Origin: Kayfunavirus AN24P4
Direction: 5' to 3' (one strand)
Sequence record: OZ035739.1
DNA: 39,836 nt
Shown here: positions 3,031-39,836 of the stretch, piece after piece
How the letters are laid out: the number at the start of each line of letters is the position of its first letter
Numbering within the stretch: the stretch's first letter is position 1
Program-made: the position numbers and the translations under genes
Notes under the pieces: model-generated
The model's input: the letters and a program-made list of their open reading frames with translations, nothing else
What the model was told of the DNA's origin: nothing
Database searches by the model: none

Positions 3031-3053
3031 ACTTAACTATCACTATAGGGAAG
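3031..3053 (+). promoter_or_regulatory. phage RNAP promoter (phiOR-like, downstream of gene 19)
   Basis: acttaactatcactataGGGaag; matches the 23-bp promoter repeated 11 times in the window; +1 G about 3048. Confidence 0.75.
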
Positions 3054-35800: not shown

Positions 35801-36737
35801 GTCTGACATCGTGGAGCATAGCCTGACTGGTAGTAAGCGTAAGTTCGATGACCGCTGGCTGAAGACCGCTGGTATATCTGACGAGCAGTGGAGTGGAATT
35901 AAGTCCCTAATCCGTGAGTCAGTGACTCGTGGGCCAGACGGGAAGTACACCATCAAGGATAAGAAGGCGTTCAGTCAGGACCCAAGGGCTATGGACCTGT
36001 GGCGTATGGGTGACACCATCGCTGACGAGACGTTACTCCGGCCTCATAAGCTGTCAAACATGGACGCCAAGGCTTATGGTCCTCTCGCTAAGACTGTCCT
36101 TCAGTTTAAGAACTTCGTCATCAAGTCTATCAATGGGAGAACCATGCGAACCTTCTATAACGCCACGAAGAACAACAGAGCGATTGACGCTGCACTGTCG
36201 ACCGTGATGTCTATGGGTCTGGCTGGTATCTACTACATGGCTCAGGCGCATGTCAAGGCTTATGCTATGCAGGATGGTCGAGACCGTGACTACCTTAAGC
36301 AAGCTCTGGACCCAACGATGATTGGCTATGCGGCCCTGTCCCGTAGTTCACATCTTGGTGGCCCACTTGGGGTAGCTAACATTCTGGGAGGTATCGCTGG
36401 ATATGAGGACACTAAGATGCTCCGTTCGTCTATCCTACCTCGTTCTCCTACAGAGAAGCCTGAGCGTGCCATCGCGTATGGTGCAGCTACAAGTGACCCT
36501 GTGATGAATGTTGTTGGTAACTTCTTGGAGCAGGTTCCAGCTTTCGGATATGCTGCTAACGTTGGCGCTTCGGCTTACAACTTGGCTGGCTACCTCAAGG
36601 CTGATACTCGTGTCAACGAGCGTGACTACATGACCGGGATGTATAATACGTTCCGTGAACTGGTTCCGAACGACCCCATTACCCAGAAGCTGCTGCTTGG
36701 AACGTTTGAGGAGCAAGGCATCCACATCAAGGACTAA
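32850..36737 (+). CDS. internal virion (core) protein D (T7 gp16-like) with divergent N-terminal domain
   Basis: 1295 aa; from about residue 200 collinear with T7 gp16 (TWFGF..A.EAE..NS.VG.A.RAG, GAGVDPL.YVP, RLEARETARN, LVRSPTGMQSGASGK, FPGSRFKGTYVPHVY, NYLLDA.RQG, YGAA...P..N..G); first ~130 aa lack the T7 transglycosylase signature. Confidence 0.93.
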   Translation: MATRGIRNNNPGNIRVSKDQWEGMTGDDGAFVTFDSPESGVRALGKNLLSYGRQGYDSIEKIINRWAPPNENDTKAYIDSVVAATGIPATQSLDLSDPDTLSSLAQAISFHETGSRYDPEVYQKGVARALNGISPKTPPVSANVFDALTEGLKAKPKVALGENLPTAAGLNIEGQAPEAPNESFGEMFYKATGETMQEQEDRSTWFGFGAATEAEVKNSMVGVAIRAGQTEDSLDVIGDVFNPTRWNNHKWSREELDQIRNAGVLPQYYGVITGGSPQNLTELINLALENQKLDQEKAKAGTGAQLAAGVIGAGVDPLTYVPIAGQVGKGGKLVNKMFTVAAQSGALAGASEIARTSVAGGDAHVAEAILGGALFGGGMTAIADGLGRALGRNTNEFAGPATRLEARETARNVDGQDLSRLPIQEGEQTFSHQGVKFADVPNEPGSVRLEDGSILIGENPLNPKTRQVFDEVIEPERAAAGVNLGGLTEIGLKLLRSENPEIRGVAADLVRSPTGMQSGASGKIGTTASDVFERLRSVDHRFYNDIDDAVTEALKDPYFQTAFWRDSGAFRQDIYQRVSMAIEDGSGNLKAELTPGELKVYDLLKNQFDAKREMMENPSMFGRQDAQSIFPGSRFKGTYVPHVYSKQMKELYTKELGSPEALQEVIKKSWLTSYASRPEVKKRVDEALLEADPTLTPEGLAAAVDKYANDKAYGISHTEQFERSSVMEENINGLVGLENNSFLEARNLFDSDMSIVLPNGQTFSVNNLREWDMDKIVPAYNRRVNGDIAIMAGTGKTTKEMKDLVETMMNKAGDDGKLKGEVSTLRDTLKILTGRARRDGADDAAFATVMRTMTDLSFFAKNAYMGVQNLTEIGGMLARGNVRALLHGVPMFRDLAFRNKKVGASEIKDLHNVIFGKELDDSIRPSKQDVIDRLRSYSDLSRGTATALGTAKYYTGELAVRSPFTKVLNGTTNYLLDAGRQGFLSDIVEHSLTGSKRKFDDRWLKTAGISDEQWSGIKSLIRESVTRGPDGKYTIKDKKAFSQDPRAMDLWRMGDTIADETLLRPHKLSNMDAKAYGPLAKTVLQFKNFVIKSINGRTMRTFYNATKNNRAIDAALSTVMSMGLAGIYYMAQAHVKAYAMQDGRDRDYLKQALDPTMIGYAALSRSSHLGGPLGVANILGGIAGYEDTKMLRSSILPRSPTEKPERAIAYGAATSDPVMNVVGNFLEQVPAFGYAANVGASAYNLAGYLKADTRVNERDYMTGMYNTFRELVPNDPITQKLLLGTFEEQGIHIKD

Positions 36738-36755
36738 ACTATCACTATAGGAAAC
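36733..36755 (+). promoter_or_regulatory. phage RNAP promoter (phi17-like)
   Basis: ggactaaactatcactataGGAaac; +1 about 36750. Confidence 0.75.
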
Positions 36756-36801
36756 TGGAGGCGCTACCATAGGTCTCCATTTAAATCACAAAGGAGGCAT
36801 A

Positions 36802-39333
36802 ATGTCCACGATTACACAATTCCCTTCAGGAAACACTCAGTACAGGATTGAGTTCGACTACCTAGCCAGAACGTTTGTTGTTGTTACGCTGGTGAATAGC
36901 TCTAACCCTACCCTGAACCGTGTACTGGAAGTTGGTCGAGATTACCGATTCCTTAATCCAACGATGATTGAGATGTTGGTTGACCAATCAGGTTTCGACA
37001 TAGTTCGTATTCACCGTCAGACTGGAACTGACTTAGTGGTAGATTTCAGGAATGGCTCAGTGTTGACAGCTAGTGACCTGACCAATTCAGAGCTTCAGGC
37101 TATCCATATTGCAGAAGAAGGTCGAGACCAAACGGTTGACTTAGCGAAGGAATATGCCGATGCTGCTGGTAGCTCTGCTGGCAACGCTAAGGATAGCGAG
37201 GACGAAGCACGCCGAATCGCTGCGAGTATCAGGGAAGCTGGTCTAATTGGCTATATTACCCGTCGCTCCTTCGAGAAAGGCTACAACGTTACAACATGGA
37301 GCGAGGTCCTGCTATGGGAAGAGGATGGTGATTATTACCGCTGGGATGGTATGCTTCCAAAGAACGTTCCTGCTGGTTCAACTCCTGAAACTTCCGGTGG
37401 GATTGGATTAGGTGCGTGGGTTAGTGTTGGTGATGCTGCTTTAAGAAGTCAGATTTCAAACCCTGAAGGGGCAATACTCTACCCGGAATTGCAGATGGCA
37501 AGATGGCGTGATGAGGGTGATGTTCGAGGCTGGGGTGCTAAAGGGGATGGTGTAACAGATAGTACGGAGAATATAGCTGCTTCACTAAATTCTCAAAAAG
37601 CTGTCGTAGCATCAGAAGGTGTATTCTCTAGTTCTGGTATTAATAGTAATTACTGTAACTTAGACGGTAGAGGTAGTGGGGTGCTAAGTCACCGTTCCAG
37701 TACAGGTAACTACTTAGTATTTAACAATCCACGTACAGGTCGCTTAAGTAATATTACGGTAGAAAGTAATAAGGCGACTGATACAACTAAGGGACAGCAG
37801 GTATCTCTTGCGGGTGGAAGTGATGTTACTGTAAGTGACGTTAACTTCTCAAACGTTAAAGGTACTGGTTTCAGTTTAATCGCATACCCTAATGATGCGA
37901 CACCTGATGGACTTATGATTAAAGGCATTCGAGGTAGCTATTCCGGCTATGCTACTAATAAGGCAGCCGGATGCGTACTTGCTGACTCCTCAGTTAACTC
38001 CCTCATAGATAACGTCATTGCTAAGAACTACCCCCAGTTCGGAGCAGTAGAGTTGAAAGGTACAGCCCGTTACAACATAGTCAGTAATGTTATAGGGGCA
38101 GATTGCCAGCATGTAACTTACAACGGCACTGAAGGGCCAATAGCTCCTTCTAATAACCTTATAAAGGGGGTGATGGCTAATAACCCTAAGTATGCAGCGG
38201 TTGTTGCAGGCAAAGGAAATACGAACTTAATCTCAGACGTGCTCGTAGATTACTCAACTTCTGATGCTAGGCAGGCTCATGGTGTTACCGTAGAAGGGTC
38301 TGATAACGTCATAAATAATGTGCTTATGTCAGGATGTGATGGTACTAACTCTTTAGGACAAGGGCAGACTGCTACAATTGCACGCTTTATAGGTACAGCT
38401 AATAACAACTATGCGTCTGTATTTCCTAGCTACAGTGCTACAGGTGTTATTACTTTCGAATCCGGCTCTACCCGTAACTTCGTAGAGGTAAAGCACCCTG
38501 GCAGGAGAAACGACCTTCTCAGTTCTGCTAGTACTATTGACGGTGCAGCTACTATTGACGGCACTAGTAATAGTAACGTAGTGCACGCACCTGCCTTAGG
38601 GCAGTACATAGGTAGTATGTCAGGTAGGTTCGAATGGCGGATTAAGTCCATGTCACTCCCTTCAGGCGTTCTTACTTCTGCTGATAAGTACAGAATGCTG
38701 GGGGATGGTGCTGTGTCATTAGCTGTAGGTGGTGGTGCATCTTCTCAAGTTCGACTATTTACTTCTGATGGTATTTATCGGACAGTATCCCTCACCAACG
38801 GCAACGTGCGTCTTCCTACCAGTAGCACAGGTTATTTGCAGTTAGGTTCTGATGCAATGACCCCAGATAGTACTAATACATACGCATTAGGTTCCGCAAG
38901 TAGAGCATGGTCTGGCGGTTTTACTCAATCAGCATTCACTGTTGTCTCAGATGCTAGGGATAAAACAGAGCCTCTTAATATCTCAGATGCTTTACTGGAT
39001 GCTTGGTCTGAAGTTGACTTTGTGCAGTTTCAGTACTTGGACCGAATTGAGGAGAAGGGTGCAGACTCAGCTAGATGGCACTTCGGCATCATCGCTCAGC
39101 GAGCTAAGGAGGCCTTCGAACGTCACGGTATAGATGCACATCGCTATGGCTTCCTGTGCTTCGACAGTTGGGATGATGTATACGAGGAAGATGCCAATGG
39201 CTCTCGTAAACTGATTACACCAGCAGGTTCCCGCTACGGTATTCGTTACGAGGAAGTACTGATATTAGAGGCTGCGTTGATGCGGCGTACTATTAAGCGT
39301 ATGCAGGAAGCATTAGCTGTTATGTCTAAGTGA
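36802..39333 (+). CDS. tail fiber / tailspike (gp17 position): T7-type N-terminal adaptor, beta-helix depolymerase-like central domain, C-terminal autoproteolytic chaperone domain
   Basis: 843 aa; first ~150 aa resemble T7 gp17 N-terminus (FDYLAR.FVVVTL, DYRF, D.VVDF.NGSVL.ASDL...Q..H.AEE.RD); central region has repetitive NxxIxxN/V beta-helix-like pattern and AT-rich codon usage; C-terminus has SDARDK motif plus conserved region typical of endosialidase-type intramolecular chaperone domains. Confidence 0.93.
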   Translation: MSTITQFPSGNTQYRIEFDYLARTFVVVTLVNSSNPTLNRVLEVGRDYRFLNPTMIEMLVDQSGFDIVRIHRQTGTDLVVDFRNGSVLTASDLTNSELQAIHIAEEGRDQTVDLAKEYADAAGSSAGNAKDSEDEARRIAASIREAGLIGYITRRSFEKGYNVTTWSEVLLWEEDGDYYRWDGMLPKNVPAGSTPETSGGIGLGAWVSVGDAALRSQISNPEGAILYPELQMARWRDEGDVRGWGAKGDGVTDSTENIAASLNSQKAVVASEGVFSSSGINSNYCNLDGRGSGVLSHRSSTGNYLVFNNPRTGRLSNITVESNKATDTTKGQQVSLAGGSDVTVSDVNFSNVKGTGFSLIAYPNDATPDGLMIKGIRGSYSGYATNKAAGCVLADSSVNSLIDNVIAKNYPQFGAVELKGTARYNIVSNVIGADCQHVTYNGTEGPIAPSNNLIKGVMANNPKYAAVVAGKGNTNLISDVLVDYSTSDARQAHGVTVEGSDNVINNVLMSGCDGTNSLGQGQTATIARFIGTANNNYASVFPSYSATGVITFESGSTRNFVEVKHPGRRNDLLSSASTIDGAATIDGTSNSNVVHAPALGQYIGSMSGRFEWRIKSMSLPSGVLTSADKYRMLGDGAVSLAVGGGASSQVRLFTSDGIYRTVSLTNGNVRLPTSSTGYLQLGSDAMTPDSTNTYALGSASRAWSGGFTQSAFTVVSDARDKTEPLNISDALLDAWSEVDFVQFQYLDRIEEKGADSARWHFGIIAQRAKEAFERHGIDAHRYGFLCFDSWDDVYEEDANGSRKLITPAGSRYGIRYEEVLILEAALMRRTIKRMQEALAVMSK
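38947..39333 (+). other. C-terminal intramolecular chaperone / self-cleaving domain of the tailspike (peptidase S74-like)
   Basis: Begins at Ser of VVS-DARDK (predicted cleavage between S and D); about 128 aa; cleavage motif matches the S-D-x-x-x-K site of endosialidase-type tailspikes as I recall it. Confidence 0.6.
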
Positions 39334-39557
39334 GTAATACTGGTACGGTATTTTCGCACAATGAAATCGTTGAACACACTGACGAGGAGGGTAATGTCAC
39401 TACTACGGAAGGACCTGTATACACCGAGGTGGTTATTCACGAAGAGGGTGAGGAGTGGGGTGTTCGGCCTGACGGAATTTTCTTTGCTGAAGCCGCTTAT
39501 CAGAGAAGAAAACTGGAAAGAATCGAAGCCAGACTTTCTGCTCTTGAACAGAAGTAA
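39330..39557 (+). CDS. hypothetical acidic small protein (75 aa) between tailspike and holin genes
   Basis: GTG start overlapping tailspike stop (GTGA); acidic N-terminal half (EHTDEEGNVTTTEGPVYTEVVIHEEGEEWG) and C-terminal coiled-coil-like RRKLERIEARLSALEQK; no T7 counterpart at this position. Confidence 0.5.
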   Translation: MSNTGTVFSHNEIVEHTDEEGNVTTTEGPVYTEVVIHEEGEEWGVRPDGIFFAEAAYQRRKLERIEARLSALEQK

Positions 39558-39587
39558 TAAACAAAACCATTTTGCCATTAAGTTGGT

Positions 39588-39598
39588 GGGGGGGGGGG
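39588..39598 (+). repeat. homopolymeric G11 tract in the intergenic region upstream of the holin gene
   Basis: ttggtgggggggggggtagag: 11 consecutive G read directly from the sequence; only long homopolymer in the window. Confidence 0.9.
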
Positions 39599-39674
39599 TA
39601 GAGACTAACTACACGCTAACCAACGTATGTAACAACTTTGGGTCACGGACGACCCGCTTTAAACTGGAGGTTTT

Positions 39675-39836
39675 ATGATTGAGTTAGACTTCAAGAATGA
39701 GGTCCTTAAAGCCTCTCCTATCGTCGGGACCGCTGCGGCTGATGGTGCCAGTCGGTTCTTCTTCGGACTTACACTGAACGAATGGTTCTACGTTGCAGCT
39801 ATCGCGTACACCGTTGTCCAGATTGGTGTTCTAGTC
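39675..39836 (+). CDS. holin (T7 gp17.5-like), 3'-truncated by window end
   Basis: ATG 39675 after ggagg; MIELDFKNEVLKASPIVGTAAADGASRFFFGLTLNEWFYVAAIAYTVVQIG closely matches T7 gp17.5 (M.SLDFNNELIKAAPIVGTG.AD.SARLFFGLSLNEWFYVAAIAYTVVQIG). Confidence 0.8.
   Translation, partial: MIELDFKNEVLKASPIVGTAAADGASRFFFGLTLNEWFYVAAIAYTVVQIGVLV

Follow-up and report, generated by a model that had tools for sequence, protein, structure and literature searches.

Kayfunavirus AN24P4 very probably carries a KflA-type K5 capsule lyase that replaced an endosialidase core on a K1F-like tailspike anchor

The tailspike gene of Kayfunavirus AN24P4 (36802..39333) is predicted to encode a known KflA-type lyase of the K5 (heparosan) capsule, which is mounted on a K1F-like T7-family anchor and equipped with a self-cleaving folding domain. 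The gene was analyzed within the whole deposited stretch of 39,836 nucleotides (OZ035739.1), referred to below as the window; all features lie on the plus strand, except for the two recombination junctions, which have no strand. Judged from sequence comparisons, it is very probable that the gene encodes a K5-lyase tailspike and that it arose by a K1-to-K5 cassette replacement. The enzyme, its structure, the self-cleaving chaperone, and the swapping of tailspike modules are already known, such that nothing is new in kind, and the identical fusion protein has already been deposited in GenBank and the PDB. The modest addition is evolutionary: a single K1F-like genome holds what appears to be the complete scar of a K1-to-K5 switch, comprising both junctions and a relic of 72 codons, and its relatives represent three independent stages of relic decay. 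The genome would thereby serve as a textbook case of cassette replacement that is clean and can be dated, in which one crossover fell in a conserved motif and the opposite one in a microhomology.

A preliminary description of the region had proposed a mosaic tailspike gene with three modules, namely anchor, beta-helix, and chaperone. The open reading frame is real and has the start, length, and stop given there (ATG, 843 amino acids, TGA); it is the gene 17 equivalent. All three modules were borne out by matches to Pfam and to PDB entries 2x3h and 3gud. A ribosome-binding site, AAAGGAGG (36790..36797), was read from the sequence four nucleotides before the ATG. Further upstream, at the position of T7 phi17, a phage-RNA-polymerase promoter motif was found (36738..36754). 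The motif, ACTATCACTATAGGAAA, had ten matches with at most three mismatches, all of them on the plus strand, compared to 0.04 expected by chance, and its promoter function is proposed by analogy with T7-family promoters. A scan of the region for sigma-70 promoters and terminators yielded matches that were not above those in shuffled sequence; the promoter type relevant to the tailspike gene is that of the phage RNA polymerase. Genome-wide nucleotide similarity points to the genus Kayfunavirus (K1F-like Studiervirinae), the backbone being 94–97% identical to CLB_P1, K1F, AN17P1, and others over 95–100% of a 21.8-kb query. The tailspike is 99% identical to 843-aa proteins encoded on Kayfunavirus contigs of 39–40 kb, and 13 phage genomes in the databases, as well as PDB 9vvr, contain this same 843-aa protein.

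The K5 (heparosan) lyase catalytic domain was assigned to about residues 254–597 (37561..38592) as a single-chain right-handed parallel beta-helix, based on near-identity to 2x3h. The crystallised K5 lyase KflA (PDB 2x3h) aligned to residues 242–716 (E = 2.8e-289) with only scattered substitutions, the full profile of phrog_14895 matched residues 209–843 with 1300 bits, and the DNA identity to the lyase gene of Vectrevirus VEc3 was 97–100% from about nucleotide 37640. The motif [NDST]x[LIVF][LIVT]x[NDGS][LIV] recurred at residues 399, 451, 474, and 501. An AlphaFold2 monomer model showed a series of short strands with a pLDDT of roughly 84–93 for most of residues 240–540. When this model was used for a Foldseek search, 2x3h ranked top (E = 4e-53; target-normalised TM-score 0.72), ahead of further beta-helix tailspikes, the AlgE4 epimerase, and polygalacturonases. 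Structure prediction thus confirmed the central beta-helix that had been proposed before. The model was poor for residues 1–149 and about 600–723, and therefore no conclusions were drawn from these parts. Of the central stretch of about 500 residues that had been ascribed to the beta-helix, the portion up to about residue 597 stood, whereas residues 598–715 or so are not a single-chain beta-helix.

Residues E417, K419, and Y440 (38050..38121) are putative catalytic residues. They correspond to E206, K208, and Y229 of KflA, with a numbering offset of 211 that was taken from the alignment with the VEc3 orthologue. We take the three KflA residues to be catalytic, as reportedly described by Thompson et al. 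in 2010; a full-text literature search on the catalytic-residue names gave no relevant match. E417 and K419 were invariant in 19 of 19 lyase homologues, the most divergent of which had 50% identity; Y440 was conserved in 18 of the 19. About 14 substitutions relative to KflA were counted manually on the printed alignment in the 2x3h-aligned region from residue 254 on, none of which affected E417, K419, or Y440. The K5A and K1-5 lyases cut poly(GlcA-GlcNAc) at the alpha-1,4 bond (PMC5380687), and Kayfunavirus phages with this gene annotate the product as "K5 lyase" (PMC8614997). We therefore assign the enzyme as KflA, the lyase of heparosan, which forms the E. coli K5 capsule; it is predicted to act by beta-elimination and is therefore not a generic hydrolase. 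Activity, cleavage, and host range of this protein are expected to follow those of homologues that are about 96–99% identical. The gene would thus set the host range, predicting infection of K5-encapsulated, often uropathogenic, E. coli, and the protein would be usable as it stands as a lyase for heparosan and heparan.

Heparan sulfate has heparosan as its precursor, which carries no sulfate, and those regions of heparan sulfate that are not sulfated are cut by K5 lyase. In addition, phage ES17 has a tail-fibre protein that is distantly related to K5 lyase in structure and binds to heparan sulfate proteoglycans (PMC7885116). These observations would fit a tailspike that also tethers the virion to mammalian heparan sulfate and, like ES17, places the phage on mucosal surfaces. 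We regard this as unlikely, because the ES17 protein and KflA share no more than a remote similarity (E = 4e-12) and sulfation inhibits K5 lyase (PMC7885116), and because a true lyase would cleave its ligand rather than hold it. A little more doubtful still is an action of the virions on the epithelium of the gut or urinary tract, where they would attach to, or trim, heparan sulfate domains that lack sulfation; this is conceivable because the unsulfated backbone of heparan sulfate has the same chemical structure as heparosan. If true, the phage would be concentrated where K5 uropathogenic E. coli live, and a lyase would provide the kind of mucosal targeting that has been proposed for ES17.

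The predicted capsule lyase is joined to a T7 gp17-type particle-binding anchor at residues 1 to about 150 (36802..37251). The Pfam family Phage_T7_tail (PF03906) matched residues 10–115 with 58 bits (cut-off 25.2), the T7 gp17 chains 7boz and 8dsp matched residues 6–116, and the anchor region was 96–100% identical to K1F at the DNA level. Binding to the tail would occur at the adaptor/nozzle. Two modelled tailspike chains in the tail structure of phage E1004 (9vvr) comprise just 121–140 residues, which are 100% identical in the alignment, and these short chains are taken to be the anchor region. The T7 gp17-like part had been put at about 150 residues; PF03906 at residues 10–115 is in line with this, but the conserved anchor module extends to about 253 amino acids and includes two elements that the first reading missed. 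The first is a small beta domain, Tail_spike_N (PF18668; residues 156–211, 37267..37434; Pfam E = 3.9e-19, 69 bits), which matched the N-terminal domains of CBA120 TSP1/3/4 and G7C gp63.1 and was modelled with a pLDDT of 72–86. The second is a helical neck or linker (residues 212–253, 37435..37560) with modelled helices at 211–244 and the motif GWGAKGDGVTD at its end. This segment was 91–99% identical to the Gamaleyavirus K5 lyase, but just 66–89% to K1F.

Residues 598 to 715 (approximately; 38593..38946) lie within the 2x3h match and probably form a triple-stranded beta-helix stalk in which the chains of the trimer interdigitate. In the KflA trimer, the beta-helix is succeeded by a triple-stranded beta-helix (PMC8822698), and together with the near-identity to 2x3h this suggests the same arrangement here. 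The confidence of the monomer model fell off from about residue 598 to 715, and the pLDDT was below 50 over residues 604–658 and 686–723, as is expected for an obligate intertwined trimer.

The last 128 residues (716–843, 38947..39330) were assigned as a C-terminal intramolecular chaperone and autoprotease. Pfam Peptidase_S74 (PF13884) matched residues 716–776 with 52.8 bits (cut-off 22), the GA-1 chaperone 3gud matched residues 716–834, 3gw6 matched residues 683–838, and the model contained a terminal helix at 816–840. The sequence VVSDARDK starts at residue 714 and provides S716 (codon 38947–38949) and K721 (codon 38962–38964), i.e. a lysine at S+5, in agreement with the previous proposal of a VVS-DARDK chaperone domain. 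S716, D717, and K721 were conserved in 19 lyase homologues and in the K1F-type endosialidase. In endosialidases, the serine and lysine at S and S+5 form an autocleavage dyad, which is active only after trimer folding (PMC3742443), and K5 and K1-5 are presumed to use this mechanism as well (PMC4690869). For the K1-5 lyase, a precursor of 67 kDa and a mature form of 52 kDa are described (PMC5380687). By analogy, the last 128 residues of this protein would be released autoproteolytically via S716/K721. The literature is at odds concerning the side of the serine on which the cut occurs: for T5 pb1 and K1F, the serine is reported to leave with the chaperone (PMC4690869), whereas the last residue of the deposited mature KflA chain (2x3h) is the one aligned to S716.

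Comparison with known systems placed these modules in context. KflA of coliphage K5A and gp46 of K1-5 (Vectrevirus) have the same catalytic beta-helix, triple beta-helix, and C-terminal chaperone, and share the S/K cleavage dyad and the conserved E/K/Y residues; the VEc3 orthologue has about 91% protein identity over its whole length. However, KflA and gp46 comprise 632 amino acids and dock non-covalently on a separate adaptor via the N-terminal heptapeptide MAKLTKP, whereas in AN24P4 the cassette is covalently fused to a K1F-type anchor of 253 amino acids. The E1004 tailspike (PDB 9vvr, "Structure of the bacteriophage E1004 tail", released 2025-11-12) has the same 843-aa architecture, and 9vvr_A matched over the full length, with about 30 of the 843 residues substituted (manual count on the printed alignment); a literature search for a paper on 9vvr or E1004 returned spurious matches only. 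The architecture is also shared by the Kayfunavirus phages AN17P1, vB_EcoP-101120B2, PM131, IME177, R1, and others, the genes of which are 96–99% identical in DNA. From E1004 and these 843-aa proteins, the AN24P4 tailspike differs by point substitutions only. The record OR594182.1, labelled "UNVERIFIED", was left out, as its annotation appears offset from the sequence.

K1F gp17 (endoNF) occupies the same genomic slot, with the same promoter and ribosome-binding site context, and its N-terminal 253 codons and the type of its self-cleaving C-terminal chaperone match those of the AN24P4 tailspike. In contrast, its core is a sialidase beta-propeller (1064 aa, K1 capsule hydrolase) in place of the beta-helix lyase, and the last 40 residues of the two chaperone domains have an identity of just about 28%. 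An identity of the AN24P4 protein as an endosialidase of this kind was rejected: no K1F homology was present between 37560 and 39344, and a Pfam search of the tailspike found no endosialidase domains. The 784-aa K5 lyase of the Gamaleyavirus (N4-like) phages UE-S5b and UE-M6 is homologous from residue 205 or so to the end and for 16 nt past the stop codon. Its locus has 93% DNA identity over 37416–39349, including the neck and the TACGG junction sequence, but its N-terminal attachment region is different. In the 73-kb Schitoviridae genome, this gene adjoins an endosialidase gene, resulting in a dual-specificity arrangement.

Mapping of the homologies delimited the exchanged segment. K1F homology covered 36701–37560 and 39344–39836 with about 95% identity (95.9% DNA identity up to 37560), while the K5-lyase gene of VEc3, a K5/K1-5-type Vectrevirus, covered 37555–39337 with 95.8% DNA identity. 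The left junction, from K1F-type to K5-phage-type sequence, therefore lies at 37555..37560, where in blastn the K1F match ends at 37560 and the VEc3 match begins at 37555; the alignment placed the crossover in the shared GGTGCTAAAGGGGATGG stretch (GAKGDG). The right junction was located by alignment at 39344..39349 in a TACGG(T) microhomology, 10–16 nt past the stop codon: the Gamaleyavirus K5-lyase locus can be aligned up to 39349, and K1F again from 39344 on. Horizontal acquisition, which had previously been proposed, could thus be demonstrated directly by the junctions and the leftover fragment of the displaced gene. Sliding identity showed that codons of about 260–620 are closest to VEc3 (97–100%), and those of about 660–843 to Gamaleyavirus UE-S5b (97–100% in most windows, compared to 89–99% for VEc3); codons of about 205–255 are also closest to UE-S5b. 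The cassette is thus itself a mosaic.

This switch within the cassette would also be found in a three-way mosaic, the chaperone domain having been acquired separately from the lyase domain. Such a history is improbable, because every K5 lyase examined, in three lineages, has the same chaperone type right after the same triple beta-helix, the pattern holds even in 50%-identical homologues of 778–820 amino acids, and the chaperone is functionally coupled to the triple beta-helix that it folds. As the chaperone always directly follows the triple beta-helix, the internal switch is best read as recombination between allelic K5-lyase genes. Lyase and chaperone travel together in three phage lineages, and they appear to have arrived in AN24P4 as one cassette, not as two independently acquired modules. 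The mosaic wording in the title of the preliminary description implies a separately acquired chaperone.

A short distance past the stop codon of the tailspike gene (39344..39557), an out-of-frame relic of the 3'-end of a K1F-type endosialidase gene was found, which comprises the last 72 chaperone-domain codons and the stop codon. Of its 72 residues, 70 (97%) are identical to residues 993–1064 of K1F gp17, and it matched positions 885–954 of phrog_1171. The relic was searched for an ATG and a Shine-Dalgarno sequence, and neither was present. A 75-aa open reading frame (39330..39557) was rejected as a real gene because it lacks both of these signals, is out of the tailspike frame, represents a fragment of a larger domain, and was shortened by deletion in relatives. 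An overlapping 105-aa frame (39361..39678) was likewise rejected: PHROG gave no match to it, and it extends across both the relic and the intergenic region. That the intact relic of 75 codons is expressed and functional is less likely than the binding or trimming of non-sulfated heparan sulfate domains considered above. The relic is complete in AN24P4, but was shortened by deletion in IME177, R1, PDP21P1, Midid, and 22664UKE3-2. The right junction is common to these five relatives, and three different internal deletions have since shortened the relic; together, this indicates one ancestral event that was followed by relic decay. The direction of the exchange, from K1 to K5, is read from the relic, for which a later recombination bringing it in would, in principle, be a confounder.

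The history, as shown by the sequence comparisons, and the proposed function can be outlined as follows. In a K1-specific, K1F-like ancestor, the endosialidase core was replaced by a lyase-plus-chaperone cassette of about 1.8 kb, from a K5-lyase gene pool common to Vectrevirus (K5, K1-5 type) and Gamaleyavirus (N4-like). The crossovers occurred in the conserved GAKGDG-coding stretch on the left and in 5–6 nt of microhomology on the right, leaving behind the endosialidase relic of 72 codons; the host range would thereby have been switched from the K1 to the K5 capsule. In the virion, six trimers would be attached to the tail through the T7 gp17-type anchor (residues 1 to about 150), followed by the small beta domain (156–211) and the helical neck. 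The KflA-type right-handed beta-helix (about 254–597) would bind heparosan and cleave it by beta-elimination, letting the virion pass through the capsule to the outer membrane. The triple beta-helix (about 598–715) would lock the trimer together, and the last 128 residues would nucleate trimer folding and then cut themselves off at S716 with the S716/K721 dyad.

The codon composition was compared with this history. A shift to A/T-ending codons had been noted before, and quantification of GC3 along the gene verified it (0.33 versus 0.56). In the best two-breakpoint fit, GC3 was 0.327 in codons 189–738 (37366–39015), compared to 0.558 for the 22 other genes pooled, and for codons 176–725 it was 0.333 (Fisher p = 8e-25 versus the pooled 22 genes). 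The extent given previously, 37400..38900, was roughly right, but the low-GC3 tract is slightly wider at both ends. The lyase segment had a GC3 of 0.340, and elsewhere no window of 462 codons fell below 0.468. GC at codon positions 1 and 2 was steady at 0.49–0.50, and therefore the amino-acid content does not explain the GC3 shift. The low GC3 matches that of donor-type phages (0.31–0.38 in Gamaleyavirus genes). However, the GC3 of K1F gp17 was 0.39 overall, 0.23 in codons 189–253, and 0.38 in the endosialidase core. Low GC3 alone is no proof of recent import, because the displaced core was similarly low and the tract begins about 64 codons upstream of the K1F/K5 junction.

The low GC3 of K1F gp17, the early start of the tract, and its recovery after about codon 738, i.e. 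inside the imported cassette, would all be compatible with low GC3 as a general trait of receptor-binding-protein genes, due for example to expression-level or translational constraints, and with a gene that is an old resident. We give this little credence in view of the discrete homology breakpoints, the relic of the displaced gene, the presence of the same cassette in three unrelated phage backbones, and the unchanged GC at codon positions 1 and 2. It is most economical to assume that the receptor-binding modules move about within a common AT-rich gene pool, in which case the composition reflects horizontal origin generally and not this particular exchange.

Among more distant relatives, the similar shapes of HK620, the CBA120 TSPs, and polygalacturonases in the weaker Foldseek matches, and a sub-threshold pectate-lyase-like Pfam match over residues 241–275, could suggest a generic hydrolytic depolymerase or an O-antigen-specific tailspike, which is extremely improbable for a protein whose catalytic domain is near-identical to that of KflA, a biochemically defined heparosan lyase, whose DNA is 97–100% identical to K5-phage lyase genes across most of the beta-helix, and whose hydrolase-type matches have just 10–15% identity. 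Of the earlier suggestion of a capsule- or O-antigen-degrading enzyme, the capsule alternative was thus retained (K5, from the near-identity to KflA) and the O-antigen was dropped. The 820-aa homologues P0041 and P0042, which are encoded in the E. coli chromosome or prophages, had 56–57% identity over about 72% of the query. Their chaperone domain is the same and the E/K/Y residues are retained, but these homologues have another N-terminus, are far more divergent, and reside in bacterial genomes. Presumably they represent the ElmA-type second K5 lyase, a name that reportedly goes back to Clarke et al. in 2000.

The tailspike gene was found at 36802..39333 on the plus strand, with an ATG start, 843 codons and a TGA stop, exactly where the preliminary description had placed it. 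A strong ribosome-binding site (AAAGGAGG, 36790-36797) lies upstream of the ATG, and a 17-nt motif (ACTATCACTATAGGAAA, 36738-36754, plus strand) precedes the gene. The motif ACTATCACTATAGG occurs ten times in the window, on the plus strand only (at 3036, 6260, 9326, 11189, 12154, 20848, 23672, 24681, 29462 and 36738), at a chance expectation of 0.04. The count is a direct observation; as to function, we infer that the copies are presumably phage-RNA-polymerase promoters of this T7-family Kayfunavirus.

Three domains of the tailspike were above the Pfam threshold, namely Phage_T7_tail (residues 10-115), Tail_spike_N (PF18668, residues 156-211) and Peptidase_S74, 'chaperone of endosialidase' (residues 716-776). 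In a search against solved structures, T7 gp17 was aligned to residues 6-116 and KflA, the K5 (heparosan) capsule lyase of coliphage K5A (PDB 2x3h, 'K5 lyase'), to residues 242-716 (E = 2.8e-289); the GA-1 intramolecular chaperone (3gud) was aligned to residues 716-834, and the K1F endosialidase chaperone (3gw6) to residues 683-838. The last residue of the deposited KflA chain aligns with S716. The motif VVSDARDK starts at residue 714, and therefore S716 and K721 of the proposed self-cleaving domain had been numbered correctly. The chain 9vvr_A (843 aa, 'Tail spike protein') matches the tailspike along its entire length, and about 30 substitutions were counted in the printed alignment; the entry is entitled 'Structure of the bacteriophage E1004 tail' (released 2025-11-12), and its two tailspike chains are modelled over just 121-140 residues.

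An AlphaFold2 monomer model, built from a 36-sequence alignment, showed stacked short strands at residues 240-540, which were mostly confident (pLDDT ~84-93). Confidence was moderate in the domain at 150-210 and in a large part of the chaperone domain, and quality was low at residues 1-149 and ~600-723. With this model, the top Foldseek match was 2x3h (E = 4e-53), followed by further right-handed beta-helix proteins, i.e. the CBA120 and HK620 tailspikes, the AlgE4 epimerase and polygalacturonases. The predicted beta-helix was thus recovered over 240-540, but residues ~598-715 were not modelled as a monomer, which is explained by the fold described for KflA, where a triple-stranded beta-helix comes after the trimeric beta-helix (PMC8822698). 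The 'Asn/Val ladder' of the preliminary description corresponds to a coil-like motif, [NDST]x[LIVF][LIVT]x[NDGS][LIV], recurring at residues 399, 451, 474 and 501.

Among 19 homologues, down to 50% identity, E417 and K419 were invariant and Y440 was nearly invariant. With an offset of 211, these residues correspond to E206, K208 and Y229 of KflA, which are reportedly the catalytic residues (Thompson et al. 2010). We take E417, K419 and Y440 to be the putative catalytic residues of the tailspike. By analogy with close homologues, the gp17-type anchor would attach six trimers to the tail, and the beta-helix would bind heparosan and cut its alpha-1,4 GlcNAc-GlcA linkage via beta-elimination, as described for K5 lyase homologues (PMC5380687, PMC7885116). 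The C-terminal domain would nucleate the triple beta-helix and, after trimer formation, excise itself via the Ser/Lys dyad, a self-removal known from related proteins (PMC3742443, PMC4690869). Sources are at odds as to whether the serine is kept by the mature spike (PMC4690869; deposited KflA chain).

The backbone is that of a Kayfunavirus: over a 21.8-kb stretch upstream, K1F, CLB_P1, AN17P1 and further phages of this genus match at 94-97% identity. The tailspike gene was found at full length, with 96-99% identity, in 13 phage records, of which every classified one is a Kayfunavirus, and the 843-aa fusion was also counted in 17 protein clusters. Partial matches start at gene nt 615 in Gamaleyavirus (N4-like) phages of 73-76 kb, where the annotation is 'K5 lyase', and at gene nt 762 in Vectrevirus phages (K5, VEc3, K1-5-type). 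The enzyme (KflA, PDB 2x3h), the Peptidase S74 chaperone, the anchor and modular tailspike exchange are all established. Swaps of K1 and K5 tailspikes have been discussed for K1E, K5 and K1-5 (PMC5380687), a publication on Kayfunavirus (PMC8614997) names the gene 'K5 lyase', and the same fusion is already deposited (13 phage genomes, PDB 9vvr). The interpretation of the preliminary description is upheld overall, with refinements, and is correct, but it was known before; the sole addition is that the recombination scar is now documented.

Pairwise blastn delimited this scar. Homology to K1F covers 36701-37560 (95.9%) and resumes at 39344-39836 (94.7%), while the K5-lyase gene of the Vectrevirus VEc3 matches 37555-39337 (95.8%) and that of the Gamaleyavirus UE-S5b matches 37416-39349 (93.0%). 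The left crossover lies within GGTGCTAAAGGGGATGG, coding for GAKGDG, the opening motif of endosialidase and lyase catalytic domains alike. On the right, the crossover maps to a TACGG(T) microhomology, 10-16 nt past the tailspike stop codon. Directly after it, at 39344-39557 and in a frame different from that of the tailspike, 72 residues are 97% identical to residues 993-1064 of K1F gp17, the endosialidase tailspike, and match phrog_1171 at positions 885-954. They are the last part of the chaperone domain that belonged to the endosialidase itself, and the segment is a remnant of the displaced endosialidase gene. Junctions and relic together give direct evidence of the horizontal acquisition that had been proposed. 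The right-junction sequence is common to five other K5-lyase Kayfunavirus genomes, in which the relic has lost internal sequence through three different deletions, all bordered by short repeats: one common to IME177, R1 and PDP21P1, one in Midid and one in 22664UKE3-2. The window's copy is the most complete. The common junction and the separate deletions point to a single ancestral acquisition followed by independent decay of a dispensable relic.

A poly-G run (GTGGGGGGGGGGGTA) was observed at 39588-39597, in the intergenic region that separates the relic from the holin gene; in K1F and 22664UKE3-2, the sequence at this site is longer and not homopolymeric. The run may be a weak spot of sequencing or assembly, or a deletion end-point.

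The nearest relative in sliding identity changes along the tailspike: K1F from codon 1 to ~200 (96-100%), the Gamaleyavirus version at codons ~205-255 (91-99%, versus 66-89% for K1F), VEc3 at codons ~260-620 (97-100%), and again the Gamaleyavirus version at codons ~660-843 (97-100% in most windows, versus 89-99% for VEc3). This pattern shows that K5-lyase alleles from three unrelated phage backbones continue to recombine mutually. Among 79 homologues with the N-terminus alone in common, the alignment ended at residues 220-229 in 46 cases and at 260-269 in 13. To judge from these alignments, the natural exchange points are located beyond the PF18668 domain and the neck rather than at residue 150.

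The K5-lyase cassette is joined to virions in three ways. In the window, it is covalently fused to a K1F-type anchor, whereas in the K1-5/K5 type it docks on a separate adaptor protein via the N-terminal heptapeptide MAKLTKP (PMC6872550), which was also visible in our alignment. In N4-like phages, the K5 lyase has a different N-terminus and its gene adjoins an endosialidase gene. This tandem arrangement, present in UE-S5b (PP301341.1, 1-5918), resembles the dual specificity of K1-5, although the backbone is unrelated. The 3' end of the UE-S5b endosialidase gene is 97.7% identical to the window's relic.

The reported shift to A/T-ending codons was confirmed. GC3 was 0.380 for the whole tailspike gene, 0.327 for codons 189-738 (nt 37366-39015; best two-breakpoint fit) and 0.340 for the lyase segment (codons 254-715), compared with 0.558 for the 22 other window genes pooled and 0.468 for the lowest 462-codon window elsewhere (Fisher p = 8e-25 against the other genes for codons 176-725, GC3 0.333). 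Because GC at the first and second codon positions was steady at 0.49-0.50, the shift is synonymous. However, the low-GC3 tract starts ~64 codons upstream of the K1F/K5 junction, and GC3 rises again within the imported chaperone domain; similarly low values occur in K1F gene 17 (0.38 in its endosialidase core and 0.39 for the whole gene) and in Gamaleyavirus genes generally (0.31-0.38). Low GC3 is therefore a mark of a shared receptor-binding-module pool rather than of this particular exchange.

Several further observations concern homologues and neighboring genes. Two homologue clusters, P0041 and P0042 (384 member sequences in the latter), comprise widespread 820-aa E. coli chromosomal or prophage proteins with 56-57% identity to lyase plus chaperone, which probably represent the second K5 lyase, of the ElmA type. 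In Escherichia phage ZG49 (NC_047777.1, 3001-6241), the segment corresponding to window positions 38141-38850 is duplicated in tandem, which splits the phage's K5-lyase gene into the 'tail spike' CDSs gp38 (686 aa, without chaperone) and gp39 (386 aa); the duplication is either real and disruptive or an assembly artefact. The feature table of OR594182.1 (vB_EcoM_SHAK7854, 'UNVERIFIED') is apparently ~2.5 kb out of register, and the tailspike sequence sits beneath features labelled holin, terminase and spanin. In the window itself, a 134-aa HNH endonuclease ORF at 355-759 (phrog_99, E = 3e-21) overlaps with the beginning of a 211-aa ORF at 542-1177. As the Rz-like spanin match of the latter is confined to residues 69-210, the spanin gene probably starts close to 746, and the HNH gene appears to have been inserted between the gene for the small terminase and that for the spanin.
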